A DNA stretch of 51,895 nucleotides, taken from NCBI GenBank assembly GCA_964355375.1, contig CAYHFE010000003.1:1-51895 (forward strand), written 5' to 3'. This DNA comes from an uncultured Verrucomicrobiota bacterium. GTDB lineage: Bacteria > Verrucomicrobiota > Verrucomicrobiia > Limisphaerales > SIBE01. The notes beneath the pieces were generated by a model. It saw only the letters and a program-made list of their open reading frames with translations. It was not told where the DNA came from and searched no databases. The position numbers and the translations under genes were made by a program. Shown in pieces: positions 1,820-44,325 of the stretch (the stretch's first letter is position 1; each line of letters opens with the position of its first letter).

Positions 1820-1865
1820 GCTTCGAGTGGTCAGTAATCACTGATCACCGATTACTGACTCCTGG

Positions 1866-3170: not shown

Positions 3171-3244
3171 AGTTTAGTTTGGGGTAACGCTTTCCCGTAT
3201 CACATTTGACATGCACGAGTTGCCGCACGCTGGGCGCGCCATGT

Positions 3245-3475
3245 TCATGCGAGCAGTTTCTTGAGTTCCGGCACGCTGGGCACTTTGCCGGATACCTTGA
3301 TGGTGCCGTTCACGGCCAGAGCGGGTGTCATCATCACGCCCAAGGCCATGATTTGTTTGAGGTCGGTGACCTTGTTGATTTCGGCGGTGAGGCCGAGTTC
3401 TTTGACGGCTTGTTCGGTGAATTGCGCGAGGGTTTTGCACTTCGAGCAACCGGGTCCAATCACGAGGATTTGCAT
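3245..3475 (-). CDS. Small thioredoxin-fold protein (redox-active disulfide protein 2 / glutaredoxin-like family)
   Basis: 76 aa, MQILVIGPGCSKCKTL... with a CxxC motif, typical of this family. Sits between the permease and the thioredoxin gene. Confidence 0.8.
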   Translation of the reverse strand: MQILVIGPGCSKCKTLAQFTEQAVKELGLTAEINKVTDLKQIMALGVMMTPALAVNGTIKVSGKVPSVPELKKLLA

Positions 3476-3498
3476 AAGGCGATTCCTTTGGTTTGAGG

Positions 3499-4803
3499 TT
3501 AAAACAATGCTCCGTAAATCAGCCCCGTGACCGTGGCCATCACGATGACGAGCCCGACATAAACCGCCGTCTTTGGTGTGCCCATCACGGTGCGCAGAAC
3601 CAGCATGCTTTGGAGCGAAAGGGCCGGACCGGCCAGCAACAGCGCGAGAGCGGGGCCTTGCCCCATGCCGCGGCCAATCAATCCTTGCAGAATCGGCACT
3701 TCAGTGAGCGTCGCGAAATACATGAAGGCGCCGACCACGGACGCGAGGACATTGGCTCGCAGCGAATTGCCGCCGACCGCCGCTGTGATCCAATCGGATG
3801 GAATGATGCCTTCCTGGCCTGGACGCCCGAGAAAGAATCCCGCCGCCAGCACGCCGAGGAGCAGCAGGGGCGTGATCTGTTTGGCAAATGTCCAGGTGGA
3901 AGAAAACCATTCGCCGGTTTCGTCCTGACTGGTGCTCGTGATGATGGACAATCCGACAACGCCGAACACGAAGGGAATCATTGGTTGGTGCGGAAACACG
4001 AACGCCAGCACGGTCGCGGGGACCGCCACCGCCAGCACCTTCCACCACGCCACTGCGAACCAGCGCACGAGCACCGAGCCCAAAGCCGCCGCACAGGCCG
4101 CCGTGATCGGCCATTTCATCAGCCAGATGGCGTGCCAGATTCCGGCGTTCTCCATCGGTTTGGCCCAATTGGCGAATACGAGAATGCCCACCATGGAGGC
4201 GAAATAGATGAGGTTATGCCAGAGTGGACGCTTCACTTCCGGCTCGGACAAGAGCGCCGCAGCTTCGGCCTTGGCCAATTCCTCCTTGCGGAAAATCAGG
4301 TGCATGAGCAATCCGATCACCACACTGAACACCACCGCGCCCACGGCTCGCGCGATGCCGAGTTTCAATCCAAGCACGCGCGCCGTCAGGACGATGGCCA
4401 GCACATTGATGGCCGGACCGGAGTAAAGGAACGCCGTGGCCGGGCCGAGCCCCGCGCCCCTGCGCCAAATGCCCGCGAACAACGGCAGCACCGTGCAAGA
4501 GCAGACCGCGAGGATCGTTCCCGATATCGAGGCCACGCCGTAGGCCAGAGCCTTGTTCGCCTTTGGCCCGAGATACTTCATCACCGAGGCCTGACTGACG
4601 AACACGCCAATCGCCCCCGCGATGAAGAACGCCGGGATGAGGCAAAGGATGACATGCTCCCGCGCATACCACTTCACGAGTTCAAACCCCTCGGTCACGG
4701 CGCGGTCGAAGCGCGGCCGGCCGACCGGCAGGTAGAAACAGGCCAGAAACAGGCCGGCGATGAGTGCCAGCGGCTTCCATTCGATCTTCCGGTTCGTTGT
4801 CAT
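3499..4803 (-). CDS. Polytopic permease, ArsP_1/DUF318-like family
   Basis: 434 aa with many TM helices. A vicinal Cys motif (ILAVCSCTVLPLF) resembles the CSC motif of ArsP-type permeases. Lies downstream of arsR. Confidence 0.7.
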   Translation of the reverse strand: MTTNRKIEWKPLALIAGLFLACFYLPVGRPRFDRAVTEGFELVKWYAREHVILCLIPAFFIAGAIGVFVSQASVMKYLGPKANKALAYGVASISGTILAVCSCTVLPLFAGIWRRGAGLGPATAFLYSGPAINVLAIVLTARVLGLKLGIARAVGAVVFSVVIGLLMHLIFRKEELAKAEAAALLSEPEVKRPLWHNLIYFASMVGILVFANWAKPMENAGIWHAIWLMKWPITAACAAALGSVLVRWFAVAWWKVLAVAVPATVLAFVFPHQPMIPFVFGVVGLSIITSTSQDETGEWFSSTWTFAKQITPLLLLGVLAAGFFLGRPGQEGIIPSDWITAAVGGNSLRANVLASVVGAFMYFATLTEVPILQGLIGRGMGQGPALALLLAGPALSLQSMLVLRTVMGTPKTAVYVGLVIVMATVTGLIYGALF

Positions 4804-4820
4804 TTAGCCAATGTGCTAAA
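4803..4820. promoter_or_regulatory. Palindrome TTTAGCCAATGTGCTAAA, candidate ArsR operator
   Basis: TTAGC-N6-GCTAA inverted repeat abutting the permease start codon. A near-identical site is at 5168..5185. Confidence 0.45.
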
Positions 4821-4848
4821 TTCTCGGGCAAAAAAATACCGCCACGAA

Positions 4849-5151
4849 TCAATTCCCACCGCGGTTGACTTGGACGGCCTCGATGCACTTGAAGAAGTTC
4901 AACACGCACGGCACGCGCAACCGGTAAAACACCTGGGCGCCCCGCTTTTCATCCTCGAGGATGCCGGCGTTCTTGAGCACGCTCAGATGTCGGGATACGG
5001 TCGGCATTTCGGCATCAATCAGGTCGGTGAGATCGCAGACGCAGCGTTCGCCGCGCGCGAGTTCGTCCACGATGAACAGGCGGGTCGGATGAGCCAGGGC
5101 CTTGATGATGCGGGCCTGGGCTTTGTATTGAGCTTGAGCGGCGGCGGTCAT
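4849..5151 (-). CDS. ArsR/SmtB family metalloregulatory transcription factor
   Basis: 100 aa from the Met at 5151. Contains IIKALAHPTRLFIVDELARGERCVCDLTDL...VSRHLSVLKNAGIL, a winged HTH with a CVC metal-site motif. Confidence 0.85.
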   Translation of the reverse strand: MTAAAQAQYKAQARIIKALAHPTRLFIVDELARGERCVCDLTDLIDAEMPTVSRHLSVLKNAGILEDEKRGAQVFYRLRVPCVLNFFKCIEAVQVNRGGN

Positions 5152-5167
5152 AGTCGCTGTTTGCACA

Positions 5168-5185
5168 ATTAGCCAAGTCGCTAAA
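5168..5185. promoter_or_regulatory. Palindrome ATTAGCCAAGTCGCTAAA, candidate ArsR operator in the arsR promoter region
   Basis: TTAGC-N6-GCTAA, 17-34 nt upstream of the arsR ATG. Matches 4803..4820 at most positions. Confidence 0.45.
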
Positions 5186-5340
5186 CTGGGCTCCCCGGAT
5201 CTTGGCTTTTGTTGACCGCGGGTTGACCTCGTTTTCAATCAACTCGTCCGGGGTGTGTTTCGCCTTGTGTTCCCGCGGGGTCGCGGATATTGCTGGTCCG
5301 TCTGAGCCGAATATCACCGTTGGCCCTGCATTCTTTGCGC

Positions 5341-7977
5341 ATGGGTTCGATTTGTCAGAGTTCTGGCCCGGTTGGGCCGTCACCGCGTCTCGTTCGCCAG
5401 GGCTCCTACGGCCTCGGCCTCGTGGTGGCGCTCTACTTTTGGGTTCCAATGGCTTTTGCCCAGGATTCGGAACGCCCCATCAACCAGTTCAGCCACGAAA
5501 CCTGGCAGAATAAGAATGGCCTCCCGCAGAACTCCGTCCATGCGGTGGTCCAAACCCGCGATGGCTATCTTTGGATGGGAACTCAGGAAGGGCTGGTGCG
5601 ATTTGATGGCGTTCGGTTCGTCGTCTTCGACCGCACCACGACACCCCAGATTCAGGTCAATCATATCCTGGCGCTTTGCGAGGACAAGGACGGGACGCTT
5701 TGGATTGGAACCTACGGGGGAGGACTGGTCGCGTTCCGCGACGGCCGGTTTCGGAGCTACGGGGCGAGCGATGGACTTCCGGGTCAGTCCATAATGGCTC
5801 TGGCCGAGGACCGGGCCGGCGCGCTTTGGATTGCGACGCAGGATGCCGGGGTGACCCGCCGGACGGCCCAGGGATTCAAGAATTACACGACCGCGCAAGG
5901 CCTGGGCAGTCTTTCCACCTCGTCCGTTGCGGTGGATTCGGACGGCTTGGTGTGGGTGGGAACGGCCAGCGGACTCAGCCAGTTCGACCAGGAGCGATTC
6001 GTCACCTTCACCGCGCGGGACGGACTCGCCACCGACACCGTCACGGCGTTGGCCGGCGATGCCGAGGGGAGCTTATGGGTGGGCACTGACGTCGGTCTGA
6101 CGCGGTGGCGACGGGATGGAGTCGTCACCTACGCCGTTCAAGATGGACTGGCGCACAATTCGATCCGGGCGCTTTACGTGGATGCGGCTGGCAGCCTCTG
6201 GGTGGGCACGCATGGAGGCGTGACCCGGCTTAGTCGCGGCCAGTTCAGCAGCATCACGAGCCGCGATGGTCTGCTCAGTGAATCCGTGATCTCGGTCTTC
6301 CAGGATCGCGAAGGCAGCTACTGGATCGGGACCGACGGCGGAGGAGTCAGCCGATGGCGCGATGCCAGCTTCGTCAGCTTCGGCACCCGGCACGGACTTC
6401 TGAGCGAGCGGATCGTCGCGATCACCGGCAGCAGTCGCGGCGGTTTTTGGGTGGGCACGGACAGCGGCCAGATCTATCAGTTTCAGAACAACCGTTTCGT
6501 GCGCCTGCCTACCGATGAGAAGGCGCCCATTCCCAACACGGAGATCCGCGCCCTGCTCGAGGATCGCCAAGGGAACCTCTGGATTGGCGGCCCGCCCCAG
6601 CTCTTGCGCTGGCGAGAGGGGCAGTGGGTGGTTTACGACCGGGCGAACGGGCTGCCCAGCTTCCCAGTCCGAGTCATTTTTGAGGACCGGGAAGGCCGGA
6701 TTTGGGTCGGGACGCGCGGCGGAGGCTTGAGCCGGGTGGAAGGGGACCGGCTCGTGACCTTCACGACCCGGGATGGCCTGGCTGATGACCGCGTCCGCGC
6801 GATGCTCCAAGACAAGGACGGCGCGCTGTGGATTGGCACGTACGGGGGTCTGACGCGGTGGCAGGACGGCAAGTTCACGGTCTTCACGACCGCGCACGGA
6901 CTCTCGCACAACTTTGTCCGGACACTGGAACTCGATGACGAGGATGGAACGCTTTGGATTGGCACCTACGGCGGCGGGCTCGACCGGATGAGGAATGGGC
7001 GCATTAACACCTACCGCACTCGCGACGGGTTGCGAAGCGACGGGCTGTTTCAGATCCTGGATGACCGCCGGGGAAGCCTTTGGATGAGCTGCAACCTGGG
7101 CGTCTTCCGGGTTGACAAGAGCGAGCTCGAGGATTTTGCCCAGGGCCGGCTCAAATCGATTTCATCCACCGCCTTCGACGAGGCGGACGGCATGGAGAAC
7201 CGGGAGTGTAACGGCGGCAGCCCGGCGGGCTGGCGGACGGAGGACGGGCGGCTCTGGTTCCCGACGTTGCAGGGGGTGGCGATGGTGGACCCGGGCCGCT
7301 TGCGTCGCAATGCCCTGCCTCCGCCAGTCGTGTTGGAAGAGGTCCGAGTGGAGGGCCGCCTCATCCAGGCGGGCGAACACCTGCCGGCCGGGAGCGAGCG
7401 GTTCGAGTTTCACTTCACCGGCCTAAGCTTTGTCGCGCCGTCGCGGATGCGTTTCGCCTATCAACTCGAGGGGTTCGATCCGGGATGGATCGACGCGGGC
7501 TTGGAGCGATCCGCCAGCTACACGTTCCTCCCCTCGCGGAAGTATCGGTTCCAGGTCAAGGCTGCCAATAACGACGGCGTCTGGAGCACCACCATCGCCT
7601 CGTTCGATTTCACATTGCGCCCCCATCTCTATCAAACCCGGTGGTTCTACGGGCTATGCGGACTGCTGCTCGTGGCCGCCGGAGCTGGGATCTATCATCT
7701 GCGGGCGCGCCAACTGCTCCAGCGCCAGCGCGAACTGCAAGCGAAAATCGACGACGCGGTGAGCCAAATCAAGACGCTCCAGGGACTCTTGCCCATCTGC
7801 GCCTGGTGCAAACGGGTGCGCGATGACCGCGGCTACTGGAACCAGATCGAGGTCTATATCCGGGATCATTCCCAGGCCGAGTTCAGCCACGGCATCTGCC
7901 CGGATTGCGTGCGCAAGTTCGAATTCGGGGACGAGAGCGACCACGCCAAGGGCTCTCCCGGGAATCGCCCAAAGTAA
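5341..7977 (+). CDS. Periplasmic double beta-propeller (two-component regulator propeller repeats) plus Y_Y_Y domain sensor with one TM helix and a C-terminal Cys4 module
   Basis: More than 12 repeats of the D..G.LW.GT..GL type. Y_Y_Y-like segment FEFHFTGLSF...YRFQVKAANNDGVWS. TM helix WFYGLCGLLLVAAGAGIY, a coiled coil, then LPICAWCKRVRDDRGYW...FSHGICPDC. The ORF opens at 5290 (TTG); the ATG at 5341 is preferred. Confidence 0.8.
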   Translation: MGSICQSSGPVGPSPRLVRQGSYGLGLVVALYFWVPMAFAQDSERPINQFSHETWQNKNGLPQNSVHAVVQTRDGYLWMGTQEGLVRFDGVRFVVFDRTTTPQIQVNHILALCEDKDGTLWIGTYGGGLVAFRDGRFRSYGASDGLPGQSIMALAEDRAGALWIATQDAGVTRRTAQGFKNYTTAQGLGSLSTSSVAVDSDGLVWVGTASGLSQFDQERFVTFTARDGLATDTVTALAGDAEGSLWVGTDVGLTRWRRDGVVTYAVQDGLAHNSIRALYVDAAGSLWVGTHGGVTRLSRGQFSSITSRDGLLSESVISVFQDREGSYWIGTDGGGVSRWRDASFVSFGTRHGLLSERIVAITGSSRGGFWVGTDSGQIYQFQNNRFVRLPTDEKAPIPNTEIRALLEDRQGNLWIGGPPQLLRWREGQWVVYDRANGLPSFPVRVIFEDREGRIWVGTRGGGLSRVEGDRLVTFTTRDGLADDRVRAMLQDKDGALWIGTYGGLTRWQDGKFTVFTTAHGLSHNFVRTLELDDEDGTLWIGTYGGGLDRMRNGRINTYRTRDGLRSDGLFQILDDRRGSLWMSCNLGVFRVDKSELEDFAQGRLKSISSTAFDEADGMENRECNGGSPAGWRTEDGRLWFPTLQGVAMVDPGRLRRNALPPPVVLEEVRVEGRLIQAGEHLPAGSERFEFHFTGLSFVAPSRMRFAYQLEGFDPGWIDAGLERSASYTFLPSRKYRFQVKAANNDGVWSTTIASFDFTLRPHLYQTRWFYGLCGLLLVAAGAGIYHLRARQLLQRQRELQAKIDDAVSQIKTLQGLLPICAWCKRVRDDRGYWNQIEVYIRDHSQAEFSHGICPDCVRKFEFGDESDHAKGSPGNRPK

Positions 7978-8003: not shown

Positions 8004-10436
8004 TCACGGCGTGCCCCCGCCCAATCCTATCCGGGCAATGCCATAGGGCTCGATCGTGACTTCCCTTCCGCCGGCCACGCTCACCCGCGCCGGCTCGTCA
8101 TCATAATTCAGCGCCAACAAATGTCCGTCGCTTTGCACGGTGAAAAAGACGTGCTCCGGTCGGGCGATCGTGATCGCCTGCCGCGTCCACGGATGCAGAG
8201 AAGGGATCGAACGCAGAACCTTTCGGGCAAACTCGCCGTAAAGGCTGGGCGGATCCACATCACCGACGAACCGATGGAAGGCGCCGCTCCCCGTGTCACC
8301 CCGACTCCAACGCTGGAAAACGGACGTATCCTCCTCGACCGTTTGCTGGAGACCTCGCGGATAGACGGGGTAAATGATCGTGCCGCCCCGGCGCAGCCAG
8401 GCATCAATATGGCGCTGCACGTCCGCCTCGATGAACCGGCCCCAAGCGAAAACCAACACCTTGTAACGATTCAAGAATCCTTCGCGAATGAGCCGGTCAT
8501 CCAGGTAATCCACGTCCACCACGCGACGAATTTCGCGGGCGACCGGATTGAAGCCCCAGGCGTAAATGTGGCGAAAGGCCGCGTCGCTCAACTGGTTCTC
8601 CGTCTCGGGATAGTAGAGGGCCACCTCGACGAGCGGATTCTGCCGGGTATCCAGAATGGGCAGGCATTTCAACCACTGGGCGATGCTGAGCTGGTGGTCA
8701 AACAAATTGCCATGGTAGGTAAAGAGATGATCCCCTTGCGTGGCGGCGGTGTTGAAGATCCGGCCGACCGTGCCGCGGGCCGTGTGCCCTCCCGCAGGCT
8801 CGTAGCCAAGGCCAACGCGATAAAGCCGGGCGGCCGTGGCGGCGAGGTGGGTGGCGTAAAAGTTCTGCTCGTAGCTATCGGTTTCATTCGTCAGCCGGAC
8901 GCCTCCGTCCACTTCGACCATGGATTTGGTCTGGGCGCTGTAATCGGTCCCGGCCTCGCGGAAGCCCCAGCCTCCGGCCGATTGATAGATCCTGGTCTTG
9001 GGCAGAGCGCGGCGCGCCTCGCGAGCCCACCATTCGCACCAGTCGGTCATCGAGTCCGTGTACCAACTCGACAGATCGACGCGTTCCCGCTTCGAAAGGA
9101 GGGTATTCGGCAGCCCGGGTTGAATCTCATCAAAGGAGTGATAGGTCGAATCCCAAGCCCGGTTCAGACCATCCACGGAAGAGTAGCGTTGGCGCAGCCA
9201 GCGCCGGTAATCCGCGCGCCCGAAAGAATCGCCCGCCCACCAGCCGATATGGATGTGCATTTTCTCGCCTTTGGCCGCCCAACCGCCACTCGCCGGGTAC
9301 TGGGATTCCCCGTAGTTGCCGCTGGGCCCCAAGCGCACGCCTTCCAGCACGTCCGTCGCGTCGTAATGACGGCCAAACGCCTGAAGAAAGCGGGTCACGT
9401 GACGCCGCTGCGCCGGACACCAAATGCTCTGAATCGAATTCGTCAGACCATGTTCCAGACAGACGAAGCCCGCGTATTCAGGGCTGCCCAGGAACCAATC
9501 GGGCAGGGCGTAGCCCGAGCCGACGATGAGCAAGGGAAACCATTTCAAACCATATTCCGCCAGCTTCCGCACGATCGCGTCGTAGAAACTGAAATCGAAC
9601 TCTCCTTCCCTTTGTGGCTCCAATCGTTTCCAGGTGACGTAGCTCTCGATGGAGGTGAAGCCCAGCACCCGGGCCAAGGGCGCCAGATCATTCATCGCCT
9701 CCAGAGAATCGGACAGAGCGGACATATCCCCCAACACATCCACGCCGGCCGTGGTCACCAGCTCCATCGGCTTGCGCAAGGTGACCATCGGCTTGACCTG
9801 TTTCGGCACGGACGATTTGACCGCACTCCACGCCGTTTCCGGCGGTTGCGACAAGATCCGCACACTTCGCAAATACTGCAGCCCGGCCACTCGCAAGACC
9901 GGCGGGTTGGTCCTCATGATCGAGGCGGCCGGAAGCGGGAAACCAAACCAGCCGCGCCGCATTTTCATCGTGTTGAGCCGGGTGTAGGAACTCCGCCGTC
10001 CGGGCGCCACGGAGCTTCCGGTCCAGCCCGTCCCGAATTGCAGCCGGGGGTCAATCACGCCCGCCCCCTGATCGCAATACTCGATCTCGAGCACGATGCT
10101 TTGTCCCGCCCAACGGGCCACGTCCGGAAGGCGAATCTCCCATTCGACTTTTGCGTAAGGATCACGGTCCGGCTCGATCTCCAGGCACGGCTCGCCCGCG
10201 AGGACGACCCGGCGGCAGCGCGCCGCGTTGATGATCCACGACGGAACCGAAGCGCCGTCGCCGAGGGTCAACGCTGGCGTGTCTTCGGCGGCTGGAGCGG
10301 GCCGGCTCGGAGCCAACGCGCCATCCGCCCCGTGAACGGTGAAGGCCGCGAACAGAACGAGCGCGAGTGGAAACCCCAGCGGAAGTCCGGCCGCAACCCG
10401 ATTTCTCCGGGAACGGGAAGCGCAGAACGCATTCAT
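8004..10436 (-). CDS. Secreted glycoside hydrolase-like protein (TIM-barrel, GH42/GH35/GH14-like; family not assignable by eye)
   Basis: 810 aa with a signal-like N-terminus. Segment FTSIESYVTWKRLEPQREGEFDFSFYDAIVRKLAEYGLKWFPLL...YALPDWF resembles glycosidase catalytic domains. Confidence 0.6.
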   Translation of the reverse strand: MNAFCASRSRRNRVAAGLPLGFPLALVLFAAFTVHGADGALAPSRPAPAAEDTPALTLGDGASVPSWIINAARCRRVVLAGEPCLEIEPDRDPYAKVEWEIRLPDVARWAGQSIVLEIEYCDQGAGVIDPRLQFGTGWTGSSVAPGRRSSYTRLNTMKMRRGWFGFPLPAASIMRTNPPVLRVAGLQYLRSVRILSQPPETAWSAVKSSVPKQVKPMVTLRKPMELVTTAGVDVLGDMSALSDSLEAMNDLAPLARVLGFTSIESYVTWKRLEPQREGEFDFSFYDAIVRKLAEYGLKWFPLLIVGSGYALPDWFLGSPEYAGFVCLEHGLTNSIQSIWCPAQRRHVTRFLQAFGRHYDATDVLEGVRLGPSGNYGESQYPASGGWAAKGEKMHIHIGWWAGDSFGRADYRRWLRQRYSSVDGLNRAWDSTYHSFDEIQPGLPNTLLSKRERVDLSSWYTDSMTDWCEWWAREARRALPKTRIYQSAGGWGFREAGTDYSAQTKSMVEVDGGVRLTNETDSYEQNFYATHLAATAARLYRVGLGYEPAGGHTARGTVGRIFNTAATQGDHLFTYHGNLFDHQLSIAQWLKCLPILDTRQNPLVEVALYYPETENQLSDAAFRHIYAWGFNPVAREIRRVVDVDYLDDRLIREGFLNRYKVLVFAWGRFIEADVQRHIDAWLRRGGTIIYPVYPRGLQQTVEEDTSVFQRWSRGDTGSGAFHRFVGDVDPPSLYGEFARKVLRSIPSLHPWTRQAITIARPEHVFFTVQSDGHLLALNYDDEPARVSVAGGREVTIEPYGIARIGLGGGTP

Positions 10437-13054
10437 TGGCAGGAACGATTGACCACGAGCGAGGCTTTGGCGCCGGGCATATCCATTCGCGGGTTTCGCT
10501 CCAGCTCCGCCAGCACCGGTTCAAACGTCCGCAGGATGGACCGATAATCCGGGTCGGTCGGACCGGCGAACACAGCCCGGCCACACGCGCCGCTGCCGCC
10601 CGCTTCCCTGGCCAGAGGGGCGAGCAGGAAACTGTTCAATTGAGGGTTCGTAATGCGCGTCCAGAAGGGGCGCGGTATCTTGCCGTTGACGTGGCATTCG
10701 GCGCACCGGCGCGCGGCGACCTCGGCGAGCGTGCGGTCGAGCTCGGGTGGATAAATCCGACGGCTGCCCGCGCTCTCCGGATGCGTCGTCTCGCTCGTGC
10801 CATAATAGGGAATGTTGAGATCAATCCAGGCGAGGATGCGGCGCCGTTCCGCCTCGTTCAGCGCCACCCGCGCCGGGCCGTCCGGCTCGGGATGACCGGC
10901 CAGGATCAGGTCGGCAAGCTTGCTCCGAGGGCTGCCCCACGCTTTCGGGGTCACGAGGAGAATGTTCGTTTCAAACCCGTTGTAGGTCGGAATCCAGTTC
11001 ACGTAAGGACTGTCCCATTGGGCTTCGCCCGATTGCCGGCGCCCGCGGGCCAACCATTCGTAGGAGACGTTGAAGTAATCGGTCCGATCGCCACTCAGAT
11101 CGACCCGGCCGGCCGCAAGCGGGCCGCTGTGACACTCGACACAGTGCCGGTCCAGGACGGGCTGAACGACCGCCGCATAATCGAATCCACCCACGCCCCA
11201 TTCGGGCGGTTCCAACGTTTTGCACGCGCCGCCCGCCGAGACGAGCCGCTGCGGAAGGGGCGCCAGTTGGCCCCGATCGGCGTGGCAGCCCACACACCCC
11301 TGCACTTCACCCGGCATGAGATGCGTGAAGGACCGCATGCGCTGCAGAGCCCGGCCGTGGCGGTCGAGGGCCATGAAGTAGAGGGGCACCCCGGCCGGCA
11401 CTGCAAATGCCGCGGAACCGTCCGGTTCCACGTCCACTTCGCCGATGACTTCCTTGCCCGCGTAGGTGGCCCCGGCGGAAATCACCGGAAACTGAAAGCC
11501 AAAGGCTCGTTTGTCGGGATGAATCCGGACCGTCTTGGGCATTTCCCGCACGACCCGCAAGCGCCGGATTTCGCCCCGCGAGACGTGCGGCTCGAGGCCT
11601 TGATAAACATCTTGAAGAAAGAGGTAGGCCGTCTCCCGGACAGCGCCGTTTTGAGACGGCGTCGCGGCTGGCCCGGACTCGGAGGAAGTGGGCGCCGTCT
11701 CGGACCCAGCCACCGTCGCGCCGCGCGGAATCCGGTTTGGCGTGGCCCGTGGCCGGACGGGCTGCGCGCCATACCAATGCCGGCCATTCCCCGGCGCGGG
11801 CAGCGCGGTGGACTGGCAGGTGCCGGCAAAATTGCGCACCAACACCGGTCCGCGCGCACTGACCAGGAACCGATGCCGGTCCAGCGGCACCGGCGTCGAG
11901 TAAGGCTTGGTGCCTTCGAAGTTGCCATTGCCTTCCTCCACCCGCGGCATGGGGACGTCGGGCGTGACATTCCAAATGGCCTCCTGCGCGTTCGCGCCCC
12001 GGGCATGATCGATGACCCCGATCGCGCCCCGGGCCGGGCCGTTATGGCCGGTCATCGTGCAGACAATCCGGTCGGTTCCGGGAATGGAACGTGCCTCCAT
12101 GAAGGTGCCGGGAGAAATGACTCGATTGCCGAAGTACCCGGCCAATCCGGTCCCGTCCGGGTTGATCGTCCAAAGGCTCTGAATGGGAATGGCCGGCTTG
12201 TCCACGTATTCCCAACGCGAGTAAATGATCCGGCCGTCCTCGAGTGGATACGGAGTAAAGTCGTTCAAGTAATTGGCCGACAACCGGCGCACCTTCGAGC
12301 CGTCCGCCTCGATGCGATGCACGACGCCGACGGGGGAATTCCAGCAATAGGCAAACTGCGCATTGCGCGTGCTGACGAAGGCGAGGCCCCCATCCGGCAG
12401 CCAGCACCCGTTGTAATCGTGCCACTCGCCCTGGGTCAGTTGGCGCAAGGCCGTGCCATCCACGTTGACCGTCCAAAGGTGATACCCCTCGCTCTCTCGC
12501 TGTCGCCAACTGAAAAGCACCTTCGATCCGTCCGCGGAAAGATCGCAATCGAGAATCTGCCCCTGTGGTGACGCGGCCAATTCCACGCGTGCGCGATCGA
12601 GGATGGGTGATCCGCCATCCTGCGATCGGACGGCGGAGGCCCCGGCAGCGCATTCCACCACGTACAGTCCGCCCCCGGCTCGGAATCCTTCGTTGTGATA
12701 GGTGTAAACATGGGTGGGATTGATCTCGTGCCGCTCAATCACGAGCAAACGGCGCACGTCGCAGAGCAGGATCTCACGCTGCAGATCCGCCATTTCAACC
12801 GCCGCGCCGCCCGCCTCCGCCTGTCGCGCCAGCAGATCCAGTCTTTCCAGAAACCGCTCAGCCCGCAGCGGGTTCAGCACTTCCGACTCGCGCAATTCAA
12901 GGATCAAGGCGCGCAGACTTGCGCCCGTCACTCGGTCCACCGGCGGGACCTGGAGCGGAGCCGCTGGAACGGCCGAGGGCTTCGGCGGAGCCGCCGAATG
13001 CGACTCGCGGACGAGACTCAGCGCCATCAGCGCCGCCGCGCATAGCGGGAACAT
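10433..13054 (-). CDS. Secreted TolB-like beta-propeller protein with three CxxCH haem c motifs
   Basis: 873 aa from the Met at 13054 (signal peptide MFPLCAAALMALSLV). TolB-like segment DLSADGSKVLFSW...LWTVNVDGTALRQLT. Motifs CVGCH, CVECH, CAECH. ATGA overlap with the downstream glycosidase gene. Confidence 0.7.
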   Translation of the reverse strand: MFPLCAAALMALSLVRESHSAAPPKPSAVPAAPLQVPPVDRVTGASLRALILELRESEVLNPLRAERFLERLDLLARQAEAGGAAVEMADLQREILLCDVRRLLVIERHEINPTHVYTYHNEGFRAGGGLYVVECAAGASAVRSQDGGSPILDRARVELAASPQGQILDCDLSADGSKVLFSWRQRESEGYHLWTVNVDGTALRQLTQGEWHDYNGCWLPDGGLAFVSTRNAQFAYCWNSPVGVVHRIEADGSKVRRLSANYLNDFTPYPLEDGRIIYSRWEYVDKPAIPIQSLWTINPDGTGLAGYFGNRVISPGTFMEARSIPGTDRIVCTMTGHNGPARGAIGVIDHARGANAQEAIWNVTPDVPMPRVEEGNGNFEGTKPYSTPVPLDRHRFLVSARGPVLVRNFAGTCQSTALPAPGNGRHWYGAQPVRPRATPNRIPRGATVAGSETAPTSSESGPAATPSQNGAVRETAYLFLQDVYQGLEPHVSRGEIRRLRVVREMPKTVRIHPDKRAFGFQFPVISAGATYAGKEVIGEVDVEPDGSAAFAVPAGVPLYFMALDRHGRALQRMRSFTHLMPGEVQGCVGCHADRGQLAPLPQRLVSAGGACKTLEPPEWGVGGFDYAAVVQPVLDRHCVECHSGPLAAGRVDLSGDRTDYFNVSYEWLARGRRQSGEAQWDSPYVNWIPTYNGFETNILLVTPKAWGSPRSKLADLILAGHPEPDGPARVALNEAERRRILAWIDLNIPYYGTSETTHPESAGSRRIYPPELDRTLAEVAARRCAECHVNGKIPRPFWTRITNPQLNSFLLAPLAREAGGSGACGRAVFAGPTDPDYRSILRTFEPVLAELERNPRMDMPGAKASLVVNRSCQ

Positions 13055-14460: not shown

Positions 14461-14554
14461 TGCCAGGGCCCATGGAGTGCGGACTTACGAACCCCGCCAG
14501 GGCAGGAATGCAGCAACGGCAGTCTGCTCCGCATCCGCCGTGGTCACCCTGGCA
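14461..14554 (+). ncRNA. ffs: Signal recognition particle RNA (small/4.5S type)
   Basis: Domain IV signature CAGG-GCA-GGAA-UGC-AGCA (GGAA tetraloop with flanking AGG and AGCA loops). Closing helices: UGCCAGGG/CCCUGGCA, CCAUGG/CCGUGG, GUGCGGA/UCCGCAU. Lies directly upstream of dnaX-ybaB-recR, as in Bacillus. Confidence 0.7.
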
Positions 14555-14671
14555 TTTCAATTTACTTAGCATGTCGGGGGGGCCGGTCGGCGATGGATGT
14601 CGCTTCCCGGCCGGTGCCCCATCGCCATCTGAAGCCGGTGGCGCGAGAATCCGGAGAGTCGAGCCGTCGCG

Positions 14672-35583: not shown

Positions 35584-35665
35584 TGCGTCGGTCCGATGTG
35601 GGCGCGGGGCCTTCCCCGTTCGACGAGAGCATTGCGTGCGGACCAGAAAACGGTATCCTGATTCC

Positions 35666-36838
35666 ATGATTAGGACTCCGCATCTGGCGCTCGGCCTCTC
35701 CACGCTTTTCACGGCGTCCGTTCTCGCGGCTCCATTGCCGGTGCGCGTCCGGCAGGGGGCGGATTATGTGGAGGCTGCGGGATTGGAGCGCGAGGCCGGG
35801 ATCGTGATCAAGCGACTGCCGGGCTCCGGCCAGTTTGTGGCCTGCGGCCAGGAGCGTTGCGCGACAGTTCAGGCGGTCCTGAACGACGGCGCGGCGCTGC
35901 TCGTGGCGGTGGCGGAACTGGTGGAAAAGCTGGATCTGACCGCGAGTTTCGATGAAAGCCGCCGCCAGGTTGCGTTGCTTCCGCTCGCCCGAGGAAGCGC
36001 CCCGTCCACCGGACTCGCGCGGGTCGGATCGATGGCGCCGAACCTTCGCTTGACCCGGCTCGACGGCAGGCCCGTCGCGCTCGATGAATTTCGCGGGCAA
36101 CGGGTGCTCATCAACAGTTGGGCCAGTTGGTGAGGATGCCGCCACGACCTGCCGGTCTGGCAGGCCTTCTACGCCCAACACCGCACCAACCATTTCACCA
36201 TTCTGTCCATCGCCGTGGACCTGCAAGGGCCGGAGGCGGTGGCGCCCTGGACCCGGCAATATGCCGTGACATTTCCGGTCGCCGTGGATGCGGCTGACGT
36301 GTTGGGCGCAGCCTTCGGCTTGAAAGCGATACCGGTTTCCTATCTCGTGGATGAAGTCGGCCTCATCCGCTTGCAGGGCGGCGGCCCTTCGAAGGAATTC
36401 CTCACGCAGGTCGAGGAGATTCTGCGCGAGCCGGTGAGCGCCGTGCGAGGCCAGGCCAGCGAAATCACCGGCAGTCTGCCCTTGCCAGAACTGCGGGATC
36501 GGGCGGCCCGCCAACCCGGCGATCCCGCCCTGCGCCTCGCGCTCGCCCAAGCGCTGGATCGCGCTGGCGAGTACGCTGGAGCCAGGACGGAGTGCGAAGC
36601 GGCCTTTCGGTTGCGTCCGAACGACGCCATGGTTTCATTCACCCACGGCCTCATCCTCCTCCACCAAAGCAACGCCCCGGGAGCGCTCGTCCAATTCAAA
36701 CGGGCGCGCGACCTGGATCCAGGCAATTGGCGCATCCGGAAACAGATTTGGGCTCTGGAGCATCCCGAGAGATTCTACGGCCCGGAAGGCATTGATTGGG
36801 GTTGGCAGAAGGAGCAGCTCGCGCGGGAAAAACAGTGA
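35666..36838 (+). CDS. Candidate selenoprotein: secreted TlpA/ResA-like thioredoxin-fold domain (UGA at the active site) fused to TPR repeats
   Basis: ORFs 35636..36133 and 36215..36838 share one frame and are separated only by TGA 36131..36133. Read-through gives RVLINSWASW-U-GCRHDLP, then TFPVAVD...GLKAIPVSYLVDEVGLIRL, then TPR-like repeats. Confidence 0.6.
36148..36164 (+). promoter_or_regulatory. SECIS-like hairpin CCUGCC-GGUCU-GGCAGG
   Basis: 6-bp stem starting 14 nt after the in-frame UGA. The apical loop contains GGUC, as in the E. coli fdhF SECIS. Confidence 0.5.
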
Positions 36839-37199
36839 CAGAAACACTCTCTTCCACGGATTGAGGGGAACATGGAATCCGGCTCCAGCCCAGCGCGAAT
36901 CCACGAACCACGAAACCACTGGCGGCGAAGTTGGCCTCTCCCGGTCGCTCTTCTCATTCTATCTCGGCAACACCAGAATCCCCGAACCGCCTGACGAAAG
37001 CACAGAAACATGCCGAAAGTCAGGACTGAACCCTTTCTGAACCTTGCCGTCCACGGCCTCGAAGGCGAAATCAAACACGGCGGCAACATCAGCAGACCTC
37101 GAACCTGGGCCGTTGCCCCAGGCTGGGATGGGTTGCGCCGTTGGCGCACAATTCACCTGAATGACTAGTTTAGGGAGGCGTCCTATTCTGCCGCTCAGA

Positions 37200-37480
37200 G
37201 CTCGCAAACTCAGGGTCGAATATCCCGGCGCGATCTATCCGATGATGAACCGGGGTGATCGGCGCGAGCCCATCTTCAAGGACGATGCCGACCGACAACG
37301 GTTTGCGGAAACCCTCGGGGAGTCGTGTGTCCGCCGTCGTTGGCAAGCGCCTGCGTATGGCCTGATGCCCAATCACCTGCCTGGGCCGAGCACGGCAGAC
37401 AGGTTTTCGCCTAGTGGTGGAGACGCCGCATCCGACACTGGTGGCCGGAATGAAATAGTCGCTGGGCACTTATTCCGATT
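37200..37480 (+). pseudogene. Decayed RAYT transposase fragment
   Basis: RKLRVEYPGAIYPMMNRGDRREPIFKDDADRQRF matches the 65..1015 protein. Frameshifted before the HUH motif; the other frame reads FRLVVETPHPTLVAGMK* with TAG replacing Trp. Truncated after about 90 codons. Confidence 0.85.
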
Positions 37481-37739
37481 GAAAGGTAGTGGGTCAGTTT
37501 CCAATTTCGATGGAACGAGCGTCCTCGCGGGCCGGCTCGTCAGCAGCCTCGCCCCACCCTATTGACCCCCGGTTGCGGTCGGATTTAGATTGGATTTTGC
37601 GCAGTCGGTAAACCGTCTGAGGGGGACGATGCAGCCGGGCCGTTCCGCGGTGATCTGGGAACCGCATTGACGGCTCGGCGATGGCTGCCAGACTCTCCGC
37701 CACCTCTGGTCCGCACCGTGGACTGGCGGATCTGATTCT

Positions 37740-38669
37740 ATGCGCTCTGTCAAAGCGGGCCTGATCGCCGCCAGCATCGGCATGGCCGTGAATTTTGTCC
37801 TGGCGATTGTGAAAATCGTCACCGGCATCGTGGGCCATTCCTACGCCCTCATCGCTGACGGCATTGAATCGACCGCCGACATTGTCAGCTCCATCGTGGT
37901 GTGGACCGGATTGAAGATTTCCTCCCTGCCCCCGGATGATGACCATCCTTACGGTCACGGCAAGGCGGAGTCCATCGCCGGCCTGGTCGTCGCGCTGGCC
38001 CTGCTCGCGGCCGCGGTTTTCATCGCGATTCAGAGCGTGCGGGAAATCATCACGCCGCATCACGCGCCAGCGTGGTTCACCTTGCTGGTCTTGGCGTTGG
38101 TGATCGCGACCAAGGAAACCCTCTATCGGTTCGTCTTCAAGGTGGGTGACGAACTGACCAGCACCGCCGTCAAGGGCGACGCCTGGCACCACCGCTCCGA
38201 CGCCCTTACCTCCGCGGCGGCCTTCATCGGCATCTCCATCGCGCTCATGGGCGGCCCAGGCTACGAGAGTGCGGACGACTGGGCGGCGTTGCTGGCGTGC
38301 GCGATCATCGTCTTCAATGGCTATCGCATTTTTCAGACGGCGCTGGGCGAGATCATGGATGCGGCCGTGCCCAATCCCATGCAAAAGGAAATCCGCGAAA
38401 TCGCCTCCGCGGTGACGGGTGTGGTCCGGGTGGAGAAATGCCGGACCCGCAAGAGTGGACTGGGGTTGATTGTGGAAATCCACGTCGAGGTGGACGGCGA
38501 TCTGACCGTCCGGAGCGGCCATGAAATCGCGCATGCTGTCAGCCGCCGTCTCAAGTCGTCCTCGCTGTCGGTCCAGGATGTCGTCGTGCATGTGGAACCG
38601 GCCCTGGCAGCGCTCGCCCACGCACCCGCCGCGACCGAGAGCACGGATGCGGGCCGGCGCCCATCCTAG
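37740..38669 (+). CDS. Cation diffusion facilitator (CDF) family metal efflux transporter
   Basis: 309 aa. SYALIADGIESTADIVSS...HPYGHGKAESI, six TM helices and a C-terminal cytoplasmic domain. Confidence 0.9.
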   Translation: MRSVKAGLIAASIGMAVNFVLAIVKIVTGIVGHSYALIADGIESTADIVSSIVVWTGLKISSLPPDDDHPYGHGKAESIAGLVVALALLAAAVFIAIQSVREIITPHHAPAWFTLLVLALVIATKETLYRFVFKVGDELTSTAVKGDAWHHRSDALTSAAAFIGISIALMGGPGYESADDWAALLACAIIVFNGYRIFQTALGEIMDAAVPNPMQKEIREIASAVTGVVRVEKCRTRKSGLGLIVEIHVEVDGDLTVRSGHEIAHAVSRRLKSSSLSVQDVVVHVEPALAALAHAPAATESTDAGRRPS

Positions 38670-40021: not shown

Positions 40022-41011
40022 CTAATGCCGAGACGCCTTTTGGGTCGCCGTCTTGAGCGGATACAGACCTGGACAGCAGCCAAACGTCTCACGAAACACA
40101 GCGCTGAAGTGGCTCAGGCTATTATAGCCGACTTCCAGGGCTGCTTCCGTCACGTTGCACTTTCCGGTGCGAAGCAACTCAGCCGCACGTTCCATGCGGA
40201 CCTCCTGCAGGTATTGCGGAATGGTCCGCCCAGTCTCTTGCGAGAAGAGCCGGCTGAGGTAGAATGGACTGCATCCGACCTTTTGCCCCAATTGTTCCAA
40301 CGACGGTGGGTGTTCCAGTTCCTCCTTCAGAATTGCGCGGGCTCGCGCGATCCGCTCTCGGGCAGCCCGTTGCGCCCGCGTGCAAAAGAGCTCACCTCCG
40401 GCCGGACGGAAGAAAAGAAGCGCGGCCAATTCTAAAGCCTTGCATCGAAACCACGCTTCTTGTGCGGGTTTGAAGACCGGACAACGCCGCAAACCTTCGA
40501 TCAGTTGAAGCAACGACGAACCTAACCGCTCTGGTGCTGACACTTGAGAAACGCAAGCCGCGCGGCGCACGATGGCGCCGACGATGGGATGAAGGTCTCT
40601 CTCCTGGCCCGGAAAGTGTTGTTCAAGAAAATCCGGAGAATACTCGACGGTGATGAATCGATGAGTCTTGTTCGCCATTCGCCAGGCGATTAGAGGCGGG
40701 ACGCCGTGATAATAAAATGCGAACGTCCGGTCGGAGAGTTCGATGGATGCTTTGCCATCGTGCACCGTCGCGGGGCCGTCCAGGTTTAGGCACAGTTCCA
40801 AGCTTCCGGGATGAAAACTGCGCGCCCAATCCAAGGGCTCGGCCCGGGTGAACTCATGCCACTCCAAGCTGAATCCGAGATGATGATAGTTGCCAAAGAG
40901 GGGGCGCCAACCCGCTCCAATGGAACTCCATGCGGGAACCTCAGTGAAAGCAGCGTCAGTCCCACGACTTGGGCCAGACCGGTAAAAGGGGACTATTCGA
41001 TCAACGGGCAC
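40022..41011 (-). CDS. AraC family transcriptional regulator
   Basis: 329 aa. C-terminal double HTH (LEQLGQKVGCSPFYLSRLFSQETG...VTEAALEVGYNSLSHFSAVFRETFG). Confidence 0.9.
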   Translation of the reverse strand: MPVDRIVPFYRSGPSRGTDAAFTEVPAWSSIGAGWRPLFGNYHHLGFSLEWHEFTRAEPLDWARSFHPGSLELCLNLDGPATVHDGKASIELSDRTFAFYYHGVPPLIAWRMANKTHRFITVEYSPDFLEQHFPGQERDLHPIVGAIVRRAACVSQVSAPERLGSSLLQLIEGLRRCPVFKPAQEAWFRCKALELAALLFFRPAGGELFCTRAQRAARERIARARAILKEELEHPPSLEQLGQKVGCSPFYLSRLFSQETGRTIPQYLQEVRMERAAELLRTGKCNVTEAALEVGYNSLSHFSAVFRETFGCCPGLYPLKTATQKASRH

Positions 41012-41970: not shown

Positions 41971-44325
41971 TCATTTCACCTCGATGGCCTGGCTCGGACA
42001 AACCTGGCGGCACGTATCGCAGCGCGTGCAGAGATCGAGGTTGATCTCGTGCCTTTGATAGGGCGTCATCGGAATGGCATCCACCGGGCAGCGCTGTGCA
42101 CATATCGTGCAGCCGGTGCAATCGTCGGTCACCTGGTACTTGATCAGACCCTGGCAGCGACGCGCCGGACAGCGGCCGCGCAAATGCGCTTCGTATTCGT
42201 CACGGAAATAACGCATCGTGGTGATGACCGGATTCGGCGCCGTTTTGCCCAGACCGCAGAGGCTGCCCCGGCTGACCCAATTGGACAACCGCTCCAATTC
42301 GTCCAAGTCTTGGCGTTGGGCCTTGCCGGTGCAGAGCCGCTCGAGAATATCCAGCATGCGCCTCGTCCCCACCCGGCAATAGGTGCACTTGCCGCACGAC
42401 TGATCCTGGGTGAACTGAAGAAAATAACGCGCGATATCCACCATGCAGTCGGCGTCATCCAACACCACCAGTCCGCCCGACCCCATGATCGCACCGACCT
42501 CGCGCAGCGATTCGTAATCCACCGACGTATCAGCCAACCGCGCCGGCACACACCCGCCGGACGGTCCGCCGATCTGGACTGCTTTGAAGCGCCGTCCCTC
42601 CGCCGCGCCGCCGCCAATTTCCTCGACGATTTCCCGGATGGTCGTGCCCATGGGCACCTCGATCAGACCGCCGCGCCGAACCTTTCCCGCCAGCGCAAAG
42701 ACCTTGGTTCCTTTGCTCGATTTCGTGCCATAGGCGGCAAACGCGTCCGCCCCGTGCCGAATGATCCAAGGAACCAAAGCGAGGGTCTCGACGTTATTGA
42801 TGACGGTGGGCTTGCCCCAGAGACCGGACTGCGCCGGGAACGGCGGCCGCAAGCGCGGCATGCCGCGTCGTCCCTCGATCGAGGCGATCAAGGCTGTTTC
42901 TTCGCCGCAAACAAAAGCTCCGGCGCCTTCCTTGATCGAGAGACGCAAGGGATAAGCGCTGCCCATCAGGCGTTCACCCAACCAGCCGCGCTGCTCGCAC
43001 ATTTCGATGGCCGCCCGTACTCGTCGCACCGCCAGCGGATACTCGCGGCGAATGTAGAAGATGCCTTCATGCGCGCCCACCGCGATCGCGGCAATGGCCA
43101 TTCCCTCGATGATCCGAAAGGGAAAGGACTCGAGCAGCATCCGATCCATGAACGCGCCCGGATCCCCTTCGTCGCCGTTGCAAATGGTGTACTTGATGTC
43201 GGCGATTTGCCCGCGGGCGGTCCGCCATTTCGGTCCGGTGGGATATCCCGCGCCCCCCCTTCCGCGCAACCCGGACTGCTCGATGACTTCGATCGTCTTC
43301 TCGGGCGACAACTCATTGAGGCAGCGGCGGACGGCGGTGAATCCGTCATGGGCCAGGTATTCCTCGAGGTTGAGCGGATCGATCTGACCGAAGTGCTCGG
43401 TGGCGATGTGGACCTGTTTGTCCAGAAACGCCTTCACGCCTGTTTCCCGGGTACTCAACGAGTAGCGAGCGATCCGTTCTTCGCCATCGTCCAGGAGGAG
43501 GGCGTCCAACGCCCGGGACCAGAGACGCGACATTCGCTGCCGAAACTTGCGCGGACGGAAATGGCGCAGAATGACGTCGTTGGCTTTGGCGGGGGTCACG
43601 CCTGCGTAAAACGTGCTCGATTTGCCCGGAACCGCCACTTCAATGAGGGGCGTGCGATGGCACATGCCGACGCAGCCCACTCGCTTGATAGTGACGTTGG
43701 CCCCGGTCTGGCTGACGCTTTCCTGGAGCGCGTGAAAGAGTCGATCGCTACCCTTGGCCATGCAGCAAGATCCGAGGCCAATATGGATCTGCGCCCCCGG
43801 AACGCCGCTGGGATGATGGTCCTCGGTCGATTTTCCCTTGGCCAGATCGGAATCGTAGCGGGCCAGAAAATCGCGGACAATGTCCGGAAATTTCTCCGCC
43901 GTGACATGGCCAAAAGTGCTGTCCTCGATCTTCACGACCGGGGCCAGCGTGCAGCAGCCCAGGCAGGCGACGGGTTCGATGGTGAACTGTCGATCCGGAT
44001 CGGTGTCATCGCCGGCCGGAATACGCAGGCGGCGGCGGACGGCGTCTTCGACCCGTTCCGCGCCGGTCACATGGCAGGCGGTGCCGCGGCAGACACGCAC
44101 AATGATCTTGCCCACCGGTCGATGACGGAACATGTCGTAGAACGTCGAAACCCCGGTGATGCTGGCCGGCGTGATCTGCGTCAGGCTGCAGACCCGGCGC
44201 AGCGCCTCCTCCGGCAGGTAGCCGTAATGCTCCTGCATGGCCTGCAGAATGGGGATGACGGCGTCGGGCGTCCGGCCGGCTTCCGCCACGGTCTGATCCA
44301 CAAAACTGAGGTCAATCTCTGGCAT
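41971..44325 (-). CDS. Fused NuoE-like / thioredoxin-like [2Fe-2S] / NuoF-like (FMN, NAD(P)H) / 2x[4Fe-4S] flavoprotein (HydB/HndC/HoxF-type diaphorase)
   Basis: 784 aa. NuoE-like CRGTACHV...CLGCC, second [2Fe-2S] module GSCCMAKG...CVGMCH, NuoF motifs GLRGRGGAGYPTGPKW and CGKCTYCRVG, C-terminal CTGCTICAQRCP and CTRCDTCRQVCP. Confidence 0.9.
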   Translation of the reverse strand: MPEIDLSFVDQTVAEAGRTPDAVIPILQAMQEHYGYLPEEALRRVCSLTQITPASITGVSTFYDMFRHRPVGKIIVRVCRGTACHVTGAERVEDAVRRRLRIPAGDDTDPDRQFTIEPVACLGCCTLAPVVKIEDSTFGHVTAEKFPDIVRDFLARYDSDLAKGKSTEDHHPSGVPGAQIHIGLGSCCMAKGSDRLFHALQESVSQTGANVTIKRVGCVGMCHRTPLIEVAVPGKSSTFYAGVTPAKANDVILRHFRPRKFRQRMSRLWSRALDALLLDDGEERIARYSLSTRETGVKAFLDKQVHIATEHFGQIDPLNLEEYLAHDGFTAVRRCLNELSPEKTIEVIEQSGLRGRGGAGYPTGPKWRTARGQIADIKYTICNGDEGDPGAFMDRMLLESFPFRIIEGMAIAAIAVGAHEGIFYIRREYPLAVRRVRAAIEMCEQRGWLGERLMGSAYPLRLSIKEGAGAFVCGEETALIASIEGRRGMPRLRPPFPAQSGLWGKPTVINNVETLALVPWIIRHGADAFAAYGTKSSKGTKVFALAGKVRRGGLIEVPMGTTIREIVEEIGGGAAEGRRFKAVQIGGPSGGCVPARLADTSVDYESLREVGAIMGSGGLVVLDDADCMVDIARYFLQFTQDQSCGKCTYCRVGTRRMLDILERLCTGKAQRQDLDELERLSNWVSRGSLCGLGKTAPNPVITTMRYFRDEYEAHLRGRCPARRCQGLIKYQVTDDCTGCTICAQRCPVDAIPMTPYQRHEINLDLCTRCDTCRQVCPSQAIEVK

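Follow-up and report, generated by a model that had tools for sequence, protein, structure and literature searches.

An in-frame UGA with its own hairpin in a verrucomicrobial gene of the predicted UGC-containing, ResA/TlpA-like selenoprotein family

A gene at positions 35666 to 36838 of a 51,895-nucleotide (nt) stretch of DNA from an uncultured Verrucomicrobiota bacterium (GenBank assembly GCA_964355375.1, contig CAYHFE010000003.1; hereafter, the window) contains an in-frame UGA that is very probably a real selenocysteine (Sec) codon with its own recoding hairpin. We are highly confident that this interval holds one intact gene, and that it encodes an exported selenoprotein of the WAxxUGC, or UGC-containing, family of ResA/TlpA-like proteins. 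This kind of selenoprotein has already been predicted and catalogued, and the window gene is an additional, currently misannotated member; current knowledge is not overturned by its discovery. Public gene calls split or truncate this gene and dozens of its relatives, or translate them with the wrong code. Coordinates refer to the forward strand unless marked otherwise.

One reading frame across an in-frame UGA

Two open reading frames (ORFs), 35636..36133 and 36215..36838, occupy one frame, and the sole stop codon between them is the TGA at 36131-36133. This arrangement had been described in a first-pass annotation of the DNA, and both the ORF list and the translation agree with it. Readthrough from the ATG at 35666 yields ...FRGQRVLINSWASW*GCRHDLPVWQ... 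(the asterisk marks the TGA), a product of 390 codons in which the residues flanking the TGA read ...VLINSWASW-*-GCRHDLPVWQAFY.... The complete selenoprotein coding sequence (35666..36838) comprises these 390 codons, with UGA read as selenocysteine at codon 156 (Sec156; 36131..36133), plus the gene's own stop codon (36836..36838), which is also TGA and is without a selenocysteine insertion sequence (SECIS) downstream. There are no frameshifts, extra stops, or other disabling mutations in the gene, and orthologues L001, L002, and L005 equal the window protein in both length and position of the Sec residue, U (390 amino acids [aa], U156). The TGA is also retained in three population contigs (L081 to L083) that share 98.9 to 99.9% nt identity with window positions 35648-38444. 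These short metagenome contigs of the same species all start at 35648-35693, within ~45 nt of the start codon, which points to strain variation immediately upstream of the gene or to an assembly break that recurs there.

The UGA sits at the active site of a thioredoxin fold. In the sequence match to ResA (4nmu; E = 1.6e-17), U is matched to the leading Cys of WCxxC, and a gap of one residue precedes the other Cys (WCKPC); the resulting U-G-C motif (36131..36139) lies within W-A-S-W-U-G-C-R, of which W-A-S-W-U-G-C forms residues 152-158. The Pfam profiles AhpC-TSA (PF00578; E = 2.5e-15) and Redoxin (E = 1.7e-12) match residues 120-243, straddling the TGA, and Pfam, a Protein Data Bank (PDB) sequence search, and Foldseek all delimit a ResA/TlpA-like thioredoxin-fold domain there (residues 120-243; 36023..36394). 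The first-pass annotation had proposed that readthrough places U-GCRHDLPVW at a TlpA/ResA-type active site and that the fold continues downstream, and the translation, the ResA alignment, and the profile matches bear out both proposals.

In related genomes, the same codon recurs almost without exception. A scan of one genome per Genome Taxonomy Database (GTDB) species retrieved 123 relatives with a C-terminal motif pattern, 80 of which were kept; at the position of the UGA, 76 of these 80 species genomes have TGA, three have a Cys codon (TGT), and one has a Ser codon (AGC). The context in relatives is W-[A/G]-S-W-U-x-C-R-x-x-L-P-[V/G]-W-Q, and among 77 Sec forms, 37 have Ala and 34 have Gly as the middle residue of U-x-C. 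Carriers are labelled as Verrucomicrobiota, Planctomycetota, Chloroflexota/Dehalococcoidia/SAR202, Acidobacteriota, KSB1, Latescibacterota, Poribacteria, and one Alphaproteobacterium (at least 8 phyla), with the closest relatives of the window protein (64 to 68% identity) found among the Verrucomicrobiota. Forms without Sec have Cys (P0002-P0016, L011, L014, and L026) or Ser (L046). A protein search returned ~16 full-length homologues of ~400 aa, as well as ~30 "proteins" of 214 to 233 aa that start just past the TGA position. The full-length homologues read INSWASW-C-G-C-RNDLP, with Cys exactly under the TGA of the window, and because these Cys forms read C-G-C, the one-residue spacing is native to the family rather than a sign of decay. 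The first-pass annotation had regarded the spacing as the mark of either a new active-site variant or a decaying gene, and it is neither: U-x-C, or C-G-C, is a native and catalogued hallmark of a family that is almost always Sec-containing and whose one-residue spacing is unusual. Of the comparisons that the annotation had proposed, the alignment with Cys-containing homologues puts a Cys exactly under U, the search of orthologues finds the UGA together with the hairpin in 76 of the 80 species genomes, and the inspection for disabling mutations elsewhere in the gene comes back empty.

A further case of UGA at the Sec codon, beside the 76 counted above, is a homologue that appears in public data with the site WWGC (P0001; L084, 396-1697), the depositor's gene caller having rendered the TGA as Trp. 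In the same gene call, from the Joint Genome Institute (JGI), a second TGA is also read as Trp, extending the ORF upstream of the real start. More often, public gene calls annotate the two halves of such genes as separate or truncated ORFs, as with a 207-aa product from the GTG at 36215. A signature consisting of WASW-UGA-x-TGY-CGN, then 6 nt, then YUGCC-NGNNU-GGCAR would recover misannotated relatives.

A SECIS hairpin downstream of the UGA

The hairpin at 36148-36164 is real. This bacterial SECIS hairpin (36148..36164) reads CCTGCC-GGTCT-GGCAGG, with a 6-bp stem that begins 14 to 15 nt after the TGA; its core of 5 bp pairs 36149-36153 with 36159-36163 within the codons for L-P-V-W-Q, and its loop, GGUCU, spans 36154-36158. 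The surrounding 66 nt fold better than all 200 dinucleotide shuffles (z = -3.46). For this segment, the minimum-free-energy structure of the single sequence chose another register (GACC/GGUC plus a long lower stem), which we rejected: over 77 orthologues, 55% of its cells are paired and its covariation equals that of shuffles. When the gap-free alignment of 77 UGA-containing orthologous windows (alignment A2) was folded with RNAalifold, a single consensus structure emerged, joining columns 25-29 with columns 35-39 over the codons Leu-Pro-x-Trp-Gln. This is the CCUGCC-GGUCU-GGCAGG hairpin that the first-pass annotation had located 14 nt past the UGA and had likened to the GGUC-loop hairpin of fdhF serving a Sec codon; its existence is supported by pairing in 77 of 77 sequences and by compensatory change.

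Every one of the 77 Sec forms makes all five core pairs. For the outer core pair, the counts are 56 C-G, 13 U-A, and 8 U-G, with no C-A, such that position 1 of the Leu codon covaries with position 3 of the Gln codon (Fisher p = 1e-9). Position 3 of this Leu codon is G without exception, whereas NUG accounts for only ~49% of Leu codons in the remainder of these genes; the chance of this invariance is roughly 1e-25 given the codon usage of each gene and with genes treated as independent. The covariation score of the consensus is 0.247, versus 0.090 +/- 0.010 in shuffles (0 of 500 as high), and sliding the partner columns gives no value above 0.071. The window also forms a sixth pair (columns 24-40), which 66% of the sequences have in the types G-C, C-G, and U-A. 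The loop follows the consensus N-G-N-N-U, in which the G and the final U are invariant, and the GGUCU of the window is the majority form in the family. Of the eight Cys or Ser genes, by comparison, only 4 have a complete stem (p = 3e-5): CUC is possible as the Leu codon, C-A mismatches are seen, and the loop G is lost once.

The element resembles the SECIS of Escherichia coli fdhF in that both are hairpins just downstream of the UGA and inside the ORF, with a GGUC-containing apical loop, an essential G, an adjacent unpaired U, and a loop G ~20 nt from the UGA (PMC8659212, PMC4605307). The general rule for bacterial SECIS elements is a stem of 6 to 8 bp with a conserved loop G ~20 nt downstream of the UGA (PMC4605307), and in E. 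coli fdhF, 11 nt separate the UGA from an upper stem-loop of 17 nt, with U17, G23, and U24 as the critical bases (PMC8659212). In the window, the invariant loop G (36155; column 31 of A2) is 22 nt past the last base of the UGA and is presumed to be the SelB contact. The two elements differ in that the window stem starts 15 nt past the UGA, versus 11 nt in fdhF, and in the placement of the unpaired U, which is 3′ of the loop in the window and a 5′ bulge in fdhF. At its gathering thresholds, Rfam has no family at this locus, its sole match in the window being a signal recognition particle (SRP) RNA.

The loop itself may be closed by an additional pair. Its positions 1 and 4 (columns 30 and 33 of A2; 36154 and 36157) are the synonymous third bases of the Pro and Val/Gly codons, and they are of Watson-Crick type in 71 of the 77 Sec forms (G-C in 45, C-G in 17, U-A in 8, and A-U in 1, with other combinations in the remaining 6). 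This complementarity is kept in 1 of the 8 non-Sec forms (p = 3e-6). The pattern suggests that positions 1 and 4 could form a closing pair that exposes a G-N dinucleotide, followed by the invariant unpaired 3′ U; no description of such pairing in this family was found in the literature examined.

Weighing the Sec reading against its rivals

Families with this active site have been listed before. The 2008 Global Ocean Sampling (GOS) study reported "Prx-like (UGC-containing)" proteins (pfam00578, motif UGC) in the form of 46 Sec sequences that were commoner in non-marine samples (PMC2398784), and a later review catalogues the UGC-motif family (pfam00578 / cd02966) with MDE0950781.1 as its representative (PMC13188914). 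The window protein has the UGC motif in a pfam00578 / cd02966 domain, as the catalogue describes. A literature search for "WAxxUGC" returned no paper.

Several observations nevertheless tell against reading the gene as a selenoprotein of this family. In the review, the family is "predicted with high confidence", its selenium not being experimentally verified (PMC13188914). The top NCBIfam match of the window protein, NF041054 ("ResA-like WAxxUGC motif-containing protein", WAxxUGC_long; E = 1.2e-44), reaches 153.1 bits, versus an equivalog cutoff of 300 bits, and 18 relatives tested against the same model score 137 to 181 bits, all below the cutoff, which places the window protein and the verrucomicrobial, planctomycete, and chloroflexal clades outside the curated model. 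On the RNA side, conservation of the residues L, P, W, and Q, which the Cys forms largely retain as well, dictates most of the stem, so the evidence comes from few synonymous positions and the informative comparison is that with the non-Sec forms; furthermore, the 77 sequences are phylogenetically related, and the Fisher and shuffle figures thus overstate their independence. The ratios of nonsynonymous to synonymous substitution rates (dN/dS) between the window gene and L001, L002, and L005 (0.21 to 0.26 upstream of the UGA and 0.11 to 0.17 downstream) were obtained with dS near saturation (1.2 to 2.6). Lastly, selA, selB, selC, and selD are absent from the 51.9-kb window, in which ARAGORN detected no tRNA at all and tblastn with the SelA, SelB, and SelD of a relative (L010) found no counterpart, in agreement with what the first-pass annotation had noted; hence, Sec decoding by the source organism is a matter of inference. 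The window likewise offers no second selenoprotein candidate, since a scan for in-frame TGA codons between coding-like segments gave ordinary gene ends.

Even with respect to NF041054, the likeness extends beyond the score, in that the window protein has the W-A-x-x-U-G-C motif in a ResA/TlpA-like fold and the full architecture of the model: residues 35-374 align in a single stretch to profile positions 8-329 of 354, covering the N-terminal domain, the thioredoxin domain, and the helical C terminus.

The alternative that survives best, although we consider it improbable, is that this is an orphaned selenoprotein gene whose Sec machinery was recently lost, the UGA now terminating translation or allowing low-level readthrough with Cys or Trp inserted. 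It is favored by the window containing neither sel genes or tRNA-Sec nor a second selenoprotein gene. Sec genes, however, usually lie elsewhere in the genome: when the flanks of relatives were searched with ARAGORN and tblastn, Sec machinery was found within 10 kb in only 1 of 80 (L010). The window SECIS is, moreover, perfect, with a 6-bp stem and the GGUCU loop of the family majority, and the three population contigs keep the TGA. In the exceptional relative, which is verrucomicrobial and shares 50% identity with the window protein, the U-G-C gene stands beside selB (1566-3524), selA (4807-6210), selD, and tRNA-Sec (8426-8522); selD carries an in-frame TGA of its own (SCAG-U-ASK), and a second selenoprotein gene (9227-10441) encodes a TlpA-like protein with the classical UxxC site DFWGDW-U-GPC. 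This gene order indicates that the family is used by Sec-decoding organisms. As a whole, L010 1566-11635 constitutes a "selenium island" in a Verrucomicrobiota metagenome-assembled genome, at the end of which lies the gene of the U-G-C family.

Decay of the gene, in which the TGA would be a nonsense mutation and the active site, shorter by 3 nt, a part of pseudogenization, is very improbable. Its support comes from the annotation of the halves as separate or truncated ORFs in public gene calls and from the disruption of the CxxC spacing seen in ResA. Nonetheless, 76 of 80 species genomes, drawn from at least 8 phyla, share both this TGA and this spacing, and there are intact Cys forms with C-G-C; the window gene itself has neither frameshifts nor extra stops and equals its orthologues in length. 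The low dN/dS of 0.11 to 0.17 past the UGA implies that translation continues beyond this codon on an evolutionary timescale.

We attach similarly little credence to the existence of two products, namely, a 155-residue N-terminal protein and an independently initiated C-terminal protein with tetratricopeptide repeats (TPRs). Gene callers do report such a split, the 207-aa product from GTG 36215 being an example, but it would separate the first strand of the thioredoxin fold from its active-site helix. The downstream start is not conserved, with homologues beginning variously at VWQ, MWQ, MPVWQ, MYAR, MAVD, and LLSI, and 27 conserved sense codons separate the TGA from GTG 36215.

The weakest rival, a genome-wide alternative code in which UGA specifies Trp or Gly, draws on the deposition of P0001 with W not only at the Sec position but also at another TGA, which precedes its start, and it is excluded by the use of TGA as the ordinary stop of at least 17 well-supported, coding-like ORFs in the window and of gene 35666-36838 itself, the Sec position also aligning with a catalytic Cys and not with Trp or Gly.

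Domain architecture, possible mechanism, and neighboring genes

The AlphaFold2 (AF2) model of the window protein (predicted local distance difference test [pLDDT] score of 79.5; predicted template modeling [pTM] score of 0.73) consists of a disordered hydrophobic N terminus, a beta domain (residues 23-106), a thioredoxin fold (residues ~125-255), and TPR-like helices (residues 273-389). The N terminus, in which pLDDT is <50 for residues 1-18, contains a putative Sec-type (secretory) signal peptide (MIRTPHLALGLSTLFTASVLAA; 35666..35731), proposed on the basis of the hydrophobic N terminus common to long forms. The N-terminal beta-rich domain (residues 23-106; 35732..35983) is built from a duplicated beta-beta-alpha-beta unit in the AF2 model and is confined to the long forms; modeled alone, it attains a pLDDT of 88.7, and a Foldseek search of this domain alone against the PDB yielded no significant neighbor (best E of 0.2). 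It includes a C-x4-C motif (Cys60...Cys65, CGQERC; 35843..35860), situated ~96 residues before U, that is present in 30 of 33 long-form homologues and is nearly invariant in alignment A3. One homologue (P0017; 252 aa, on a 1031-nt JGI contig) lacks the entire thioredoxin domain, its N-terminal domain running straight into the TPR region (…SLDELRARAARQP…); either a genuine deletion or a collapse of the assembly over a "DELR" stretch that is repeated could account for this.

In Foldseek searches, the thioredoxin domain recovered ResA, TlpA, and StoA at a target template modeling score (TM) of about 0.8. Pro223 (36332..36334), within an A-I-P-V segment, is invariant in alignment A1 and would correspond to the cis-Pro loop of the thioredoxin fold. 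The C-terminal TPR-like helical domain (residues 273-389; 36482..36832) is recognized by both Pfam and the AF2 helices, and TPR models match residues 281-354, with TPR_19 and TPR_14 above and TPR_16 and TPR_2 below their cutoffs. It contains the signature N-W-R-I-R-K-Q-I-W-A-L-E-H-P-E-R-F-Y (36725..36778), whose columns, N354...Y371, are mostly invariant in A1; in the form NWRIRKQIWAxExPxxFY, the motif is essentially invariant across phyla. Chloroflexota loci (L021, L031-L079) encode a short form of ~235 aa that is without the signal peptide and N-terminal domain and retains the U-x-C site, the SECIS, and the C-terminal motif as NW(R/I)I(R/K)KQ(I/V)WA. Lacking a signal peptide, the short form is presumably cytoplasmic, and the family is thus not uniformly extracytoplasmic.

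Among known proteins, the closest resemblance is to ResA, TlpA, StoA, and CcmG (DsbE) of cd02966, with which the window protein shares a thioredoxin fold with an insertion, the W-x-x-W-C context, a conserved Pro loop, and, in long forms, export signals. It differs from these proteins in that its U-x-C is one residue shorter than C-x-x-C, which it does not contain, in the replacement of the attacking Cys by Sec, and in having extra N-terminal beta and C-terminal TPR-like domains. Neither the neighbors in the window nor the 81 loci examined showed linkage to genes for cytochrome c or Sco/CoxB maturation. In peroxiredoxins, the peroxidatic Cys or Sec occurs in the context P-x-x-x-T/S-x-x-C/U. The motif given for Sec-containing peroxiredoxins is TxxU (PMC13188914). 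We rejected a peroxiredoxin identity for the window protein, whose context, N-S-W-A-S-W-U-G-C, is without T-x-x-U and whose best matches are ResA and TlpA. The order of a thioredoxin fold followed by TPR helices recalls CnoX/YbbN (3qou, at Foldseek rank 50). YbbN is cytoplasmic and has an SxxC site. An assignment to CnoX/YbbN was rejected because the superposition is weak (TM of 0.21 to 0.28; root mean square deviation of 24 Å), and the resemblance is architectural only.

A single residue between redox chalcogens is also a feature of Bacillus subtilis YphP, CsgC, and the thioredoxin CGC mutant, whose CxC/CGC sites have potentials of -130 to -200 mV, in an isomerase- or oxidase-like range; unlike the U-G-C of the window, these sites are all-sulfur and lie on unrelated scaffolds, that of CsgC being an Ig-like fold (PMC3173608). 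By analogy with these C-x-C potentials, there are hints that the chemistry of U-x-C may be isomerase-like or oxidizing.

If the gene is decoded as we propose, the SECIS hairpin, with its stem of 5 to 6 bp and N-G-N-N-U loop, would recruit SelB-GTP-Sec-tRNA(Sec), with SelB probably binding the loop G, and UGA-156 would be read as selenocysteine and not as a stop. Comparative data put Sec156 in the place of the attacking N-terminal Cys of the ResA/TlpA CxxC, with Cys158 as the likely resolving partner, and the fold suggests a thiol-disulfide oxidoreductase in which the two residues would cycle through a U-G-C selenenylsulfide. The long form is predicted to be exported, probably to the periplasm, where the TPR-like C-terminal domain with its NWRIRKQIWAxExPxxFY motif would most plausibly bind a partner or substrate, and the N-terminal domain with C-x4-C may do so as well. 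A joint reading goes further and is, in our estimation, doubtful: that a compact SelB-recognition module is shared across at least 8 phyla and that the C-x4-C forms an intramolecular redox relay with the U-x-C site, making the protein an almost obligately Sec-dependent envelope oxidoreductase. Were this true, the compact module could sharpen the prediction of bacterial SECIS elements. From an ecological standpoint, the gene marks its source organism as a likely selenium user.

Little can be drawn from the genomic surroundings. Clustering of conserved neighbors over 81 loci disclosed no shared partner gene beyond closely related Chloroflexota, and a scan for promoter and terminator consensus sequences around the gene found none. 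In the window, its neighbors encode a GHL6 glycosyl hydrolase and a CDF cation-efflux protein, which appear to be functionally unrelated to it. Just downstream, a 134-aa ORF (37161-37565, +) has an N terminus (…RVEYPGAIYPMMNRGDRREPIF…) that we take to resemble those of IS200-like or REP-associated tyrosine transposases; it has no Pfam match at E <= 1e-4 and may therefore be a degraded fragment. At 41971-44325 (-), a large fused protein combines NuoE-like, NuoF-like, and ferredoxin parts (2Fe-2S_thioredx, Complex1_51K, NADH_4Fe-4S, and Fer4 domains), and the adjoining genes showed no catalytic partner for it, a formate dehydrogenase alpha subunit for example. The ORF at 40022-41011 (-) is presumably of the AraC type, and the Rfam match in the window is a bacterial small SRP RNA at 14461-14557 (+; RF00169, 67 bits).

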